From IMG/VR virus record IMGVR_UViG_2529293151_000012: a DNA stretch of 5,865 nucleotides. One strand, written 5' to 3'. This stretch comes from a virus (lineage: Duplodnaviria > Heunggongvirae > Uroviricota > Caudoviricetes). The notes beneath the pieces were generated by a model. That model saw only the letters and a program-made list of their open reading frames with translations, was not told where the DNA came from and did not search any database. Positions 2,274 to 5,865 of the stretch are shown piece by piece. Every line of letters starts with the position of its first letter. Positions within the stretch are counted from its first letter, which is position 1. A program made the position numbers and the translations under genes.

Positions 2274-2284
2274 GTGGGGTGAAT

Positions 2285-5200
2285 ATGGCAGTAAAGATTT
2301 CAGGTGTACTGAAAGACGGCACAGGAAAACCGGTACAGAACTGCACAATCCAGCTGAAAGCAAAACGTAACAGCACCGCGGTGGTGGTGAACACGCTGGC
2401 CTCAGAAAATCCGGATGAAGCCGGGCGTTACAGCATGGACGTTGAGTACGGTCAGTACAGCGTTATTCTGTTGGTGGAAGGATTCCCGCCGTCACATGCC
2501 GGGACCATCACCGTGTATGAAGATTCTCAACCCGGTACGCTGAATGATTTTCTCGGTGCCATGACGGAGGATGATGCCCGTCCGGAGGCACTGCGCCGTT
2601 TTGAACTGATGGTGGAAGAGGTGGCGCGTAACGCGTCCGCGGTGGCACAGAACACGGCAGCCGCGAAGAAGTCAGCCGGCGATGCCGGCACATCTGCCCG
2701 TGAGGCGGCAACCCATGCGACTGATGCTGCAGGCTCAGCACGCGCAGCCAGCACGTCAGCCGGACAGGCCGCTTCGTCGGCTCAGTCAGCGTCTTCCAGC
2801 GCAGGAACGGCATCAACAAAGGCCACTGAAGCCTCAAAAAGTGCTGCCGCTGCAGAGTCCTCAAAAAGCGCGGCAGCTACCAGTGCCGGTGCGGCGAAAA
2901 CGTCAGAAACGAATGCTGCAGCGTCACAACAATCAGCAGCCACTTCTGCATCCACCGCGACCACGAAAGCGTCAGAAGCTGCCACCTCAGCCCGGGATGC
3001 GTCGGCTTCAAAAGAGGCAGCGAAATCATCAGAAACGAACGCATCCTCGAGCGCCAGTAGCGCAGCTTCCTCGGCAACGGCGGCAGCAAATTCCGCGAAG
3101 GCGGCAAAAACGTCCGAGACGAACGCCAGGTCTTCTGAGACGGCAGCGGGACAGAGCGCCTCAGCTGCGGCAGGCTCAAAAACAGCGGCTGCGTCGTCTG
3201 CCAGTGCCGCGTCAACAAGTGCCGGGCAGGCCTCAGCCAGTGCCACCGCCGCCGGAAAATCGGCAGAAAGTGCTGCATCGTCCGCTTCAACAGCCACAAC
3301 GAAGGCTGGCGAAGCCGCTGTACAGGCCAGCGCAGCAGCGAGGTCTGCTTCCGCAGCGAAGACATCCGAAACGAATGCGAAAGCGTCGGAAACCCGTGCA
3401 GAATCCTCAAAAACGGCAGCCGCATCGTCCGCCAGTTCGGCAGCGTCATCGGCATCATCTGCGTCTGCTTCAAAAGATGAGGCGACCAGACAGGCGTCAG
3501 CAGCGAAGGGCAGCGCCACGACGGCATCCACGAAAGCAACAGAGGCGGCAGGCAGTGCGACGGCGGCATCTCAGAGCAAAACTACTGCTGAATCCGCTGC
3601 GACCCGTGCGGAAGCTGCTGCTGATCGTGCTGAAGAGATTGCCGGTGCAGTTGCGATGGAAGACGCAAGCCTTACAACTAAAGGTGTTGTGAAACTTAGC
3701 AGTGCTGTTGATAGCACCAGTGAATCGCTGGCGGCAACGCCAAAGGCAGTAAAATCAGCCTATGACAATGCAGAGAAACGTCTGCAGAAAGACCAGAACG
3801 GCGCTGATATACCCGATAAGGGACGCTTCCTGAACAACATTAACGCGGTCAGTAAAACAGACTTTGCTGATAAGCGTGGTATGCGTTATGTGCGGGTTAA
3901 CGCTCCTGCAGGTGCAACATCTGGAAAATATTACCCTGTTGTTGTTATGCGTTCTGCTGGCTCAGTAAGCGAACTGGCATCAAGGGTCATTATCACCACG
4001 GCAACGCGAACCGCAGGCGATCCGATGAATAACTGCGAGTTTAACGGATTTGTTATGCCTGGTGGCTGGACTGACAGGGGGCGTTATGCTTATGGAATGT
4101 TCTGGCAATATCAAAACAATGAACGAGCCATCCACTCAATAATGATGAGTAATAAGGGCGATGATTTGCGCTCTGTGTTCTATGTTGATGGCGCTGCTTT
4201 CCCTGTTTTTGCGTTTATCGAAGATGGCCTGTCAATATCCGCACCTGGTGCTGATCTCGTTGTTAATGATACGACCTATAAGTTTGGGGCAACAAATCCG
4301 GCGACTGAATGTATCGCGGCGGACGTTATCCTTGATTTTAAGAGTGGGCGTGGTTTTTATGAGTCTCATTCGTTAATCGTTAACGATAACTTGTCGTGCA
4401 AAAAACTTTTTGCCACAGACGAAATTGTAGCGCGTGGTGGTAATCAGATTCGAATGATAGGTGGGGAGTATGGGGCATTATGGCGTAATGATGGCGCTAA
4501 AACTTACCTGCTGCTTACCAATCAAGGTGATGTTTATGGTGGCTGGAATACATTAAGACCGTTTGCTATTGATAACGCAACCGGCGAACTGGTTATTGGA
4601 ACCAAACTGTCCGCAAGTCTGAACGGTAATGCATTAACAGCAACAAAGCTGCAAACGCCAAGACGGGTTTCTGGTGTTGAGTTTGATGGTTCCAAAGATA
4701 TTACTTTAACCGCCGCGCATGTGGCTGCTTTTGCCAGAAGGGCAACGGATACATATGCCGATGCGGATGGTGGCGTTCCCTGGAATGCCGAATCAGGCGC
4801 TTACAATGTCACCCGCTCTGGCGACAGCTATATTCTGGTTAACTTCTATACCGGAGTCGGAAGTTGCCGGACCCTGCAGATGAAGGCGCATTACAGAAAT
4901 GGTGGTCTGTTCTACCGTTCTTCAAGAGATGGCTATGGTTTTGAGGAAGACTGGGCAGAAGTTTATACCTCGAAAAATCTTCCACCAGAAAGCTACCCAG
5001 TCGGCGCACCAATCCCGTGGCCATCAGATACCGTTCCGTCTGGTTATGCCCTGATGCAGGGGCAGACTTTTGACAAATCTGCCTACCCGAAACTTGCTGC
5101 CGCTTATCCGTCAGGCGTGATCCCTGATTTGCGTGGCTGGACGATTAAGGGCAAGCCCGCCAGTGGTCGTGCCGTATTGTCTCAGGAACAGGACGGCATT

Positions 5201-5683
5201 AAATCGCATACCCACAGCGCCAGCGCATCCAGTACGGATTTGGGGACGAAAACCACATCGTCGTTTGATTACGGCACTAAATCCACGAATAACACTGGTG
5301 CGCATACCCATAGTTTAAGTGGCAGCACGAATGCAGCTGGTAATCACAGCCATAGAGATGGCCGTCGATTTAACCCCAGTGTTTTTAAAGATACTTATCA
5401 ATATGGTTATACAAGCTCAGGTCAAAATACCTGGGGTGTACAAGGCTCAGTAGGTATGTCTACGGGGTGGTTAGCGAATACCAGTACAGATGGTAATCAT
5501 AGCCATTCACTGTCCGGCACAGCAGCATCTGCAGGTGCACACGCGCATACTGTCGGTATTGGTGCTCATACGCACTCCGTTGCGATTGGTTCACATGGAC
5601 ACACCATCACCGTTAACGCTGCTGGTAACGCGGAAAACACCGTCAAAAACATCGCATTTAACTATATTGTGAGGCTTGCATAA
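2285..5683 (+). CDS. stf: Side tail fibre protein Stf, long mosaic form (about 1132 aa from the ATG at 2285; the track ORF starts 2 codons earlier at GTG 2279)
   Basis: Single uninterrupted frame of 3.4 kb. The N-terminus [30 protein letters not shown] and the C-terminus ...[31 protein letters not shown] match, from memory, lambda Stf (Ur-lambda form) and the T4 gp37 distal tip family. Conserved fibre motif LAATPKAVK at 3728-3754. Shine-Dalgarno-like GGGGTGA 3-9 nt upstream of the ATG at 2285. Stop TAA at 5681-5683. Confidence 0.95.
2630..3650 (+). repeat. In-frame Ser/Ala/Thr-rich periodic tract inside stf (heptad / 21-nt period, with a 42-nt higher-order repeat encoding AAKTSETNA-like units)
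   Basis: The protein from about aa 118 to 457 parses into roughly 48 consecutive heptads of the form S-A-x-x-A-A/S-T/S (for example [28 protein letters not shown]) with no stutter. At DNA level, near-identical 20-mers (aaaacgtcagaaacgaatgc and variants) occur at 2897, 3023, 3107 and 3359, with spacings of 126, 84 and 252 nt, all multiples of 42. Confidence 0.7.
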
Positions 5684-5865
5684 TGGCATTCAGAATGAGT
5701 GAACAACCACGGACCATAAAAATTTATAATCTGCTGGCCGGAACTAATGAATTTATTGGTGAAGGTGACGCATATATTCCGCCTCATACAGGTCTGCCAG
5801 CAAACAGTACCGATATTGCACCACCAGATATTCCTGCTGGCTTTGTGGCTGTTTTCAACAGTGAT
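5683..5865 (+). CDS. tfa: Tail fibre assembly protein Tfa (chaperone for Stf), 3'-partial; continues beyond the window
   Basis: ATG at 5683-5685 overlaps the stf stop (TAATG). Shine-Dalgarno GAGG at 5671-5674, 8 nt upstream. Translation [61 protein letters not shown] matches, from memory, the N-terminus of lambda Tfa. Frame is open to the window end. Confidence 0.9.

Follow-up and report, generated by a model that had tools for sequence, protein, structure and literature searches.

The side tail fibre gene stf in the 5,865-nucleotide stretch of phage DNA analysed here (the window) contains about 1 kb with a 21-nucleotide periodicity, which raises the question of whether the periodicity belongs to the fibre protein, to the DNA itself or to a second gene read in another frame. 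The sequence-only reading had placed the tract at positions 2630-3650, which lie inside stf and encode residues 118-458. The tract is very probably the proximal shaft of a lambdoid Stf, a long trimeric Ala/Ser coiled coil that acts as a rigid spacer, with the periodicity of the DNA as a by-product. Within our analysis, this reading is based on the periodicity, the continuity of the register, column conservation, in-phase insertions and deletions, the predicted helix, and homology with lambda Stf and with fibres of the PF08400 type. We infer the trimeric, parallel state from published work on homologues (SEC-MALLS of PfN-PCoil and cryo-EM of Ur-lambda Stf), which also points to the spacer role. 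The domain itself is already known: it is the coiled-coil shaft published for side tail fibres of the lambda type.

Layout of the fibre gene and its heptad tract

The genes of the window are ordered J - lom - stf - tfa, with J domains at 22-1553 and Ail/Lom at 1621-2220 (Table 1). The TAA stop codon of stf overlaps the ATG of tfa by one base, at 5683, and the open reading frame starting there is a tail fibre assembly protein according to the annotation of matching phages. The Pfam matches in Stf are PF08400 (E 2.1e-71, residues 3-136), Gp34_trimer and Collar, and the "side tail fiber protein" of phage PhiR34_1 is 96.5% identical to Stf over its full length. The N-terminal domain matches a 94-residue chain in PDB entries 9e7m and 9mgh (chain Ta in 9e7m; phmmer E 3.1e-51), and the collar of Stf has been described as residues 1-94, also given as 1-91 (Yu 2025, PMC12617516). 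Judged by its N-terminal domain, the gene order and the gp37-type tip, the gene is that of a lambdoid side tail fibre of the PF08400 type. The KGVVKLSS...ATPKAVK module that follows the coil is present twice in one homologue (L115).

Table 1 Features of stf and its heptad tract, in window coordinates
Feature	Position	Strand	Details and evidence
stf, side tail fibre gene	2279-5683	+	1134 aa, GTG start; ORF list, Pfam
N-terminal collar domain, predicted to dock the fibre on the tail tip	2285-2566	+	aa 3-96; phmmer, PDB match
Heptad tract, predicted trimeric coiled-coil shaft	2582-3673	+	aa ~102-465, ~52 heptads, ~54 nm; 7-residue rows, column statistics, Viterbi, AF2
Strict Ala ladder	2663-3631	+	aa 129-451, Ala at column 3 in 47 consecutive heptads; rows of 7, column counts
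Spurious alternative-frame ORF	2682-3692	+	336 aa, Arg/Pro/Gln-rich
Spurious antisense ORF	2782-3531	-	249 aa
Spurious antisense ORF	2877-3569	-	230 aa
D3 repeat, copy 1	2891-2916	+	26 nt, AAK[TS]SETNA; other copies 85% identical to copy 1; repeat search, translation
D3 repeat, copy 2	3017-3042	+	left crossover site of the 336-nt deletion that occurs naturally in L116
D3 repeat, copy 3	3101-3126	+	repeat search
D3 repeat, copy 4	3353-3378	+	right crossover site of the L116 deletion
Segment absent from lambda stf	3193-3507	+	315 nt, 105 aa, 15 heptads; DNA and protein alignments to lambda
Coil end, hinge and conserved KGVVKLSS...ATPKAVK module	3644-3847	+	aa 456-523; phmmer to Mu tail fibre S, 5yvq residues 105-172
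T4 gp34-like trimerisation domain	4271-4615	+	aa 665-779; PF21446 E 3.4e-27; PDB 4uxe, 5nxf
T4 gp37-like receptor-binding tip, HxH repeats	4988-5680	+	aa 904-1134; phmmer E 1.6e-84 to 2xgf; Collar PF07484

The tract was arranged in rows of seven residues starting at residue 99. Column 3 is occupied by Ala in 47 of the 52 heptads, all of them consecutive; this run is preceded in the same register by F108, V115 and V122 and followed by V458 and L465. Column 6 is Ser in 37 of the 52 rows, and column 7 is Ala in 35, Lys in six and Glu in six. The strict seven-residue periodicity without skips, claimed earlier from the letters, extends over ~52 uninterrupted heptads (residues ~102-465), and a register-tracking Viterbi path contains no register shift across residues 114-459. 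The claimed dominance of Ala, Ser and Thr was also borne out, with 134, 80 and 40 of these residues, respectively, among the 364 at positions 99-462 (~70% together). The remaining residues are mostly E, K, G, R, Q, D and N. Large hydrophobic residues are nearly absent, and the sole Pro is at residue 102.

The columns differ in conservation. Among 56 homologues of the same length, the amino-acid diversity of columns 3, 6 and 7 is 0.008, 0.011 and 0.011, compared with 0.047-0.085 in the other four, so that conservation is 4-10 times stronger in these three columns. Nucleotide diversity in the stf frame is 0.158 at codon position 3, compared with 0.051 at position 1 and 0.046 at position 2. The substitution pattern indicates that the stf frame is under purifying selection.

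DNA periodicity and length variation

Of the two autocorrelation lags that the sequence-only reading had proposed to check, 21 and 42 nucleotides, the shorter is raised and the longer does not form a period of its own. Nucleotide identity at lag 21 is 0.444, compared with 0.363 +/- 0.013 in codon shuffles (z 6.5), and identity is raised at every multiple of 21 up to 168 and at no other multiple of 3. Because shuffles of synonymous codons retain the lag-21 identity (0.435 +/- 0.009; z 1.0 for the observed value), the DNA periodicity is fully explained by the protein: the 21-nucleotide period comes entirely from the heptad. Identity at lag 42 (0.416) is lower than at lags 21, 63 and 84. Compared with shuffles of whole 21-nucleotide units, it gives z -0.01, and the difference between even and odd multiples of the heptad gives z -0.63. 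Self-identity of the protein at lag 14 (0.371) is below that at lag 7 (0.415), lag 28 and lag 35. A 42-nucleotide higher-order repeat in this window is thereby rejected; a tandem 14-residue unit exists in a sister clade, only in homologues L101, L102, L118 and L124. The 20-mers at 2897, 3023, 3107 and 3359, from which the higher-order repeat had been deduced as near-identical copies, agree at 16-17 of 20 positions and at 22-28 of 42 when extended to 42 nucleotides. They encode K[TS]SETNA.

At the DNA level, the tract does not qualify as a conventional tandem repeat. Tandem Repeats Finder (TRF), run on the whole window, reported no tandem repeat in the tract, and the longest exact direct repeat there is 11 nucleotides, compared with 12.7 +/- 2.0 in synonymous shuffles. 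An excess of repeats over the level imposed by the protein, as expected of recent duplication, was rejected on this comparison. The converse idea, a depletion of repeats by selection against recombination, was also rejected, since the longest repeat is 11 nucleotides or shorter in 32% of the synonymous shuffles.

Tract length was compared in a census of 188 unique homologous proteins, which were retrieved as loci; a search for homologues of the N-terminal domain listed only fragments of up to 237 residues, mostly partial and unsuited to the measurement of tract length. Many database copies of the protein are partial, perhaps because assemblies break within the gene or close to it. Coils come in a small set of fixed lengths of about 124, 224, 241 and 346 residues, one per fibre architecture, and the register is unbroken in 186 of the 188 proteins. 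The two exceptions are a deletion of three residues (-3) and an insertion of four (+4), each corresponding to a classic coiled-coil stutter. Apart from these, the length differences between alleles (105 and 112 residues) are multiples of seven. A coil of identical length, 346 residues, is present in 55 of the 58 unique proteins that share the downstream context of the window. Of 5426 complete E. coli genomes, 4727 contain a match to the tract, with stfR of K-12 among the matches, and each of the 19 sampled E. coli rows that had full coverage in a single piece is exactly 1221 nucleotides long, as is the query. In-phase variants exist, but length is nearly constant within each architecture. Across the segment missing from lambda stf, identity to lambda drops from 0.88 to 0.68, and homologue L034 likewise lacks 105 residues (315 nucleotides). 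In L116, from E. coli EC24, an in-phase deletion of 336 nucleotides removes 112 residues, or 16 heptads, and has its crossover inside two copies of the K[TS]SETNA repeat that are 85% identical. E. coli variants longer by 132 nucleotides (H50 type) were considered as a further heptad change and rejected, as the extra 44 residues duplicate the hinge module, which lies outside the coil.

These observations bear on whether the tract is primarily a substrate of DNA recombination or slippage, a contingency-type repeat that generates variants of fibre length. Such a function is improbable. The L116 crossover inside 26-nucleotide repeat copies, the 315 nucleotides missing from lambda and L034, and the spacing of ten of the 15 repeated 10-mers at multiples of 21 nucleotides speak for it. 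However, the repeat content equals that of a random synonymous coding of the same protein, and the same codon is used at a lag of seven residues in 25% of cases, no more often than at out-of-phase lags. Neither high-identity head-to-tail repeats nor frequent copy-number polymorphism, which characterize contingency tracts, were found. The earlier suggestion that slipped or unequal recombination could alter fibre length among related phages finds weak support: the L116 event is in its favour, and the shortness of the exact repeats, their lack of excess and the near-constant length are against it.

Fold of the shaft and related fibres

A close relative with an experimentally characterized coil is Stf of Ur-lambda, encoded by an orthologous gene at the same locus, J-lom-stf-tfa. 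Its Ala/Ser heptad and register are as in the window, and the architecture of collar, linker, trimeric coil, hinge and gp37-like distal part matches. Lambda stf is 87.7% identical in nucleotides to window positions 2279-3192, which cover the N-terminal domain and the first ~200 coil residues. The window Stf differs from that of Ur-lambda, which is 774 residues long, by the 15 additional heptads and by a different and longer distal region. In the published description of Ur-lambda Stf, the collar (residues 1-91) is followed by a linker, the proximal coiled coil (102-393), a hinge and the distal domain; cryo-EM showed a trimeric bundle, and a rod is visible by cryo-ET (Yu 2025, Sci Adv, PMC12617516). 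StfR of the Rac prophage in K-12 is 91.6% identical over window positions 2540-3760, with a tract of exactly equal length. StfR and the RefSeq entries named "prophage tail fiber N-terminal domain-containing protein" differ from the window Stf by alleles and C-terminal modules only.

The collagen-like fibres EPclA and EPclB of E. coli O157 prophages also have a PF08400 N-terminal domain followed by an Ala/Ser-rich heptad region, PCoil, and this architecture recurs in homologue L100 and the 124-residue class of the census. PCoil is shorter, with ~116-124 residues compared with ~360 here, richer in Glu and described as only loosely periodic, and it continues into a collagen triple helix where Stf has the gpS-, gp34- and gp37-like modules. 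For the PfN-PCoil fragment of EPclA, CD showed an alpha-helical structure, SEC-MALLS a trimer and EM a rod; PCoil melts cooperatively near 49-52 C and varies in length by multiples of seven (Ghosh 2012, PMC3368898). T7 gp17 resembles Stf in being a phage fibre whose N-terminal domain attaches to the tail and precedes a helical shaft, but its shaft is much shorter and has another core composition. It was the only PDB sequence found similar to the tract (E 4.7e-4 when all of Stf was searched, and a marginal 0.13 in the search with the tract alone); the similarity is composition-driven, and none of the tests run supports gp17 as a homologue of the tract. Honeybee silk fibroins are coiled coils with a core dominated by Ala instead of Leu or Ile. 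They are an analogy only, as they are unrelated proteins lack the Ser layer and are described as heterotetrameric.

The single-sequence AF2 monomer is helical at residues 100-390 and 400-479, with a mean pLDDT of 72.7. It folds back on itself, with breaks of low pLDDT around residues 256-262 and 386-399, and was left out of fold searches. Stable coiled coils do not typically have a core of Ala and Ser, and to our knowledge there is no atomic structure of an Ala/Ser-core coil of this kind. A fold-back was also produced by AF3 for Yu et al., who judged it inconsistent with cryo-ET (PMC12617516). The predicted helix, the conserved core columns, the in-phase indels and the restriction of register breaks to stutters support the long, regular, Ala-based trimeric coiled-coil shaft that had been put forward for the tract.

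Two other structures were weighed for the tract. With 70% Ala, Ser and Thr, hardly any large hydrophobic residues and only moderate AF2 confidence, the tract could be an intrinsically disordered low-complexity linker whose periodicity is a relic of ancient duplications. This is very unlikely, as the signal of duplication has been erased from the DNA and yet the register is perfect, three columns are selectively conserved, and indels respect the heptad; moreover, the homologous PCoil is a cooperatively melting helical trimer, and the rod of Ur-lambda has been imaged. Still less probable is a repetitive non-helical fold, such as a triple beta-helix or beta-spiral with a seven-residue repeat. Beta-structured shafts are frequent among phage fibres, and the distal part of Stf matches the beta-rich domains of gp34 and gp37, but the tract is Ala-rich with its one Pro at the very start, is predicted to be helical throughout, tolerates discontinuities of the coiled-coil stutter type and has an alpha-helical homologue by CD.

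In the coiled-coil reading, three parallel copies of residues ~102-465 would form a single long left-handed alpha-helical coiled coil whose core would consist of small residues, with Ala at 'a', Ser at 'd', and Ala, Lys or Glu at 'e' (equivalently g-a-d). At 0.1485 nm per residue, the rod would be ~15 heptads (~16 nm) longer than that of lambda Stf. The collar domain would clamp on the tail tip and continue through the rod and the hinge into a mosaic distal part with Mu gpS-like and T4 gp34-like modules and the T4 gp37-like receptor-binding tip. A stiff spacer of this kind would keep the tip far from the tail, so that the fibre would be the first to touch the cell surface. Selection would act on the heptad register of the protein and leave the 21-nucleotide periodicity of the DNA as a by-product. 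The register must be kept, and natural length changes would therefore be whole heptads, rarely a stutter. We speculate, as a long shot, that the ~37 Ser 'd' and 47 Ala 'a' layers over ~52 heptads could define a distinct class of ultra-thin trimeric coiled coils whose core is polar and perhaps hydrated or lined with ions, and that the length classes are perhaps quantised by functional tuning of the rod, which might match, for example, how deep the O-antigen or capsule is or how far the central J fibre reaches.

The tract carries little weight as a discovery, since the domain has been published and many E. coli prophages have this allele, stfR of Rac in K-12 among them. The N-terminal domain and coil together are the constant adaptor for exchangeable receptor-binding tips, in nature and in engineered delivery particles; residues 1-393 of lambda STF joined to foreign tips give functional fibres (PMC11338833). 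For designs that alter fibre length, the restriction to whole heptads or a stutter is a useful guide.

Open reading frames in other frames

Long open reading frames overlap the tract on both strands, as had been noted from the sequence and ascribed to its compositional bias. That one of the three listed in Table 1 is a real gene that constrains the sequence is hardly credible. In favour of a gene, the open runs reach 351, 262 and 234 codons, and the one in the -2 frame exceeds those in all 500 simple codon shuffles. Under shuffles of 21-nucleotide units, which keep the local codon context, all five frames are however within or close to the null distribution. The +1 frame gives P 0.041, uncorrected for five frames, and the apparent anomaly of the -2 frame disappears (P 0.071). 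Stop counts differ among homologues, for example 0-4 in the -2 frame and 1-3 in the +1 frame, and diversity is concentrated at the third positions of stf codons. The shuffles, the variable stops and the third-position diversity agree in supporting the earlier view of these frames as spurious ORF calls to which the tract gives rise.

Layout of the distal tail locus and of Stf

Within a lambda-like prophage, the window corresponds to the distal tail region, and the side tail fibre protein Stf that it encodes is a mosaic. Over its whole length, stf shares 96.5% identity with the phage PhiR34_1 'side tail fiber protein'. Residues 3–96 match a solved 94-residue tail-fibre chain (PDB 9e7m/9mgh, E 3e-51), which we take to be the collar of Ur-lambda Stf (PMC12617516). 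At window positions 5681–5685, the sequence TAATG joins the stf stop and tfa start codons with an overlap of one base, and the shared base suggests that translation of the fibre is coupled to that of its assembly chaperone. In T4 gp37, H-x-H motifs of the needle domain coordinate iron ions. Such motifs (SHTHS, AHTHS, NHSHR, NHSHS, AHAHT, AHTHS, and SHGHT) recur in the gp37-like tip of Stf at 5219–5650 (aa ~981–1124), and most of them are preserved in the alignment to 2xgf.

Features of the window and modules of Stf
Feature	Position	Strand	Remark
J, 3' part	22-1553
lom	1621-2220
stf	2279-5683	+	1134 aa
tfa	start at 5683
PF08400 N-domain	Stf aa 3-136
Mu gpS-like module	Stf aa 456-523
T4 gp34-like trimerisation domain	Stf aa 665-779
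T4 gp37-like tip	Stf aa 904-1134		E 1.6e-84 to 2xgf
Long open frame	2682-3692	+
Long open frame	2782-3531	-
Long open frame	2877-3569	-

J is broken into two overlapping ORFs (22–837 and 810–1553) by a 1-nt deletion at 789/790, where the window reads CATTAT-TCGCGGG and all 95 homologous loci aligning over at least 110 nt read CATTATGTCGCGGG. The split either reflects a sequencing error or makes J a pseudogene, in which case the prophage would be defective; stf is intact despite it. The sole tandem repeat that TRF reports in the window also lies inside J, at 1086–1128 (19-nt unit x2.3, GTCAGATTAAGGAGAAACT, 84% matches).

Heptad periodicity and its protein-level origin

Written seven residues to a row starting at aa 99, the stf tract follows the pattern [T/S]-A-A-[A/S]-[T/S]-S-A, in agreement with the consensus S-A-x-x-A-A-T proposed by the sequence-only reading. 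Column 3 is Ala in 47 successive heptads (aa 129–451), with F108, V115, and V122 ahead of the run and V458 and L465 beyond it continuing the register. Ser occupies column 6 in 37 of the 52 heptads, and column 7 is mostly Ala (35), with six Lys and six Glu. A register-tracking Viterbi model finds no shift between aa 114 and 459, as expected of a periodicity without skips. At lag 21, nucleotide identity reaches 0.444, compared with 0.363 +/- 0.013 in codon shuffles (z 6.5), and it is raised at every multiple of 21 up to 168 and at no other multiple of 3. The unbroken register and the lag-21 excess show that the core observation is real; it had been partly mis-described. The 20-mers at 2897, 3023, 3107, and 3359, described as near-identical, share just 16–17 of 20 positions, and the proposed 42-nt superperiod is absent when whole 21-nt units are shuffled as the null (lag 42, z -0.01; even minus odd multiples, z -0.63).

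The motif K[TS]SETNA encoded at these sites is part of a 14-residue unit ending in [AS]S[EQ], copies of which are dispersed in the window. In a sister clade of four loci (L101, L102, L118, and L124), this unit is repeated in tandem in near-perfect copies at aa ~130–350, and lags 14, 28, and 42 of the coil exceed lags 21 and 35. The sister-clade tandem is the higher-order repeat that had been placed in the window. The four loci carry Stf of the E. ruysiae / Escherichia sp. type.

The periodicity of the DNA is a passive result of constraint on the protein, since permuting codons between like residues leaves a lag-21 identity of 0.435 +/- 0.009 (observed value at z 1.0) and DNA repeats are not in excess. 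No excess over this synonymous shuffle stands out at any multiple of 21. Identical residues one heptad apart use the same codon in 25% of cases, which is not above out-of-phase lags. TRF reports no tandem repeat in the tract, and the longest exact direct repeat in its 1.1 kb is 11 nt, neither above nor below synonymous shuffles (12.7 +/- 2.0). Duplication history, if any, is erased at synonymous sites.

The long alternative-frame ORFs in the tract are compositional artefacts, as had been supposed. Shuffles preserving local codon context largely reproduce them, the +1 frame coming closest to the tail of the null (P 0.041, uncorrected for five frames). The stop content of the alternative frames differs among homologues, whose variation is concentrated at stf third positions.

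A predicted trimeric coiled-coil rod

In 56 homologues of equal length, columns 3, 6, and 7 have amino-acid diversities of 0.008, 0.011, and 0.011, and the other four have 0.047–0.085. The three conserved columns form one contiguous stripe on the heptad wheel (d-a-e, equivalently g-a-d). Codon position 3 is about three times as diverse as positions 1 and 2. A single-sequence monomer prediction by AF2 is helical at aa 100–390 and 400–479 (mean pLDDT 72.7), with low-confidence breaks where the lone chain folds back, an artefact also met with AF3 by Yu et al. (PMC12617516). In 186 of 188 unique complete Stf-like proteins, from loci fetched with three different N-domain queries, the register runs unbroken through 17 to 49 heptads. 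The other two proteins carry a 3-aa deletion (locus L070) and a 4-aa insertion (L033), each equivalent to a classic coiled-coil stutter. Where alleles share homologous flanks, their true differences in length keep the heptad phase (105 aa for lambda and L034, 112 aa for L116). Column conservation, the AF2 helix, and in-phase indels support the Ala-based coiled-coil alternative in the initial reading of a long, regular trimeric shaft. The tract most likely forms a parallel trimer of ~52 heptads. At the textbook coiled-coil rise of 0.1485 nm per residue, the predicted rod would be ~54 nm long and probably serves as a stiff spacer from the tail-tip collar to the hinged, receptor-binding distal half.

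Both the feature and its structural interpretation were known before, the latter from published work. Ghosh et al. 2012 described an Ala/Ser-rich 'PCoil' after the PF08400 domain of O157 prophage fibre proteins, which is α-helical (CD), trimeric (SEC-MALLS), and forms a ~16 nm rod (EM), with lengths varying by multiples of seven (PMC3368898). Ur-lambda Stf consists of a collar (1–91), linker (92–101), proximal coiled coil (102–393), hinge, and distal domain, and cryo-EM shows a trimeric bundle linked to three collar domains (Yu et al. 2025, PMC12617516). Lambda STF 1–393 fused to foreign tips gives functional fibres (Brodel et al. 2024, PMC11338833), and therefore the N-domain and coil constitute a modular adaptor.

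Length variation and spread of the coil

The rod of the window is 15 heptads (~16 nm) longer than that of lambda. The extra 315 nt lie at 3193–3507, and because identity to lambda falls from 0.88 to 0.68 across them, this point is also a mosaic boundary. The idea that the repeats are a recombination substrate is supported by one clear natural case. Locus L116 (E. coli EC24) lacks 336 nt (16 heptads) and switches from the left-copy to the right-copy match inside the 26-nt repeats at 3017–3042 and 3353–3378, two of the four sites named by the sequence-only reading. Such events are rare, however, and coil length is essentially fixed for each downstream context: 346 aa in 55 of 58 proteins with that of the window, 241 aa in 55/55 with the EPYK context, and 124 aa in 49 of 54 of the collagen type. 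The other five were called at 119 aa because the Viterbi model starts their coil at 119, not 114. All 19 sampled full-coverage, single-piece E. coli matches span the exact query length. Exchange of distal modules makes total Stf length vary between 654 and 1178 aa; fibre diversity therefore arises mainly from swapping post-coil modules, not from changing heptad number.

In L115 (E. coli 'numer 3', NZ_CP141863.1), stf starts at locus position 1246 and carries a pseudogene annotation. Within the heptad tract, at ~aa 216, a Q codon is replaced by an in-frame stop, and directly after the coil the hinge module is duplicated in tandem (44 aa). The same +132-nt span occurs in E. coli genome matches H52, H56, H57, and H67.

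The stf allele of the window is common. The tract with its flanks (2540–3760) matches 4727 of 5426 complete E. coli genomes, and K-12 Rac stfR has identical length and 91.6% identity over this span. When aa 127–454 were run in a full HMMER scan against 1.84 billion representative proteins, 910 clusters matched at E <= 1e-3, including giant proteins of 2000–6200 aa with many short Ala/Ser heptad segments between globular domains. Such segments thus occur beyond PF08400-type fibres too, for example in P0144. Five database proteins of 2800–6200 aa (P0144, P0146, P0150, P0169, and P0178) contain 6–16 separate tract-matching stretches at 41–51% identity. P0144 has J-like Pfam domains (FNIII-A_GpJ, Phage-tail_3), and its runs of about ten Ala/Ser heptads alternate with non-repetitive segments; P0150 has no Pfam match.

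Contig SFGJ01000067.1 (L100), from a 'Clostridiales' MAG, carries an stf-like ORF from 2522 with the same N-domain as the window, ~17 Ala/Ser/Glu heptads, and directly thereafter an extended collagen-like Gly-X-Y tract, an arrangement that Ghosh 2012 described for EPcl (PMC3368898). It is probably an enterobacterial phage contig that was wrongly binned. Lambda-stf-like sequences on short contigs (L083–L099, L103, L105, L107, L110, and L112) have N-domains ~90% identical to that of the window; several contig names give coverage near 1, and the assemblies are labelled Pseudomonas, Shewanella, Desulfosporosinus, Kitasatospora, Bradyrhizobium, Vibrio, and others. They most likely represent contamination with lambda control DNA. 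A single genome can have the gene at as many as 13 sites. The best 120 database proteins sharing the N-domain (P0001–P0120) are all fragments of <=237 aa, mostly labelled partial, possibly because assemblies break in or near stf. Several of them are misnamed, for example as 'short-chain fatty acid transporter' or 'peptidase S74'.
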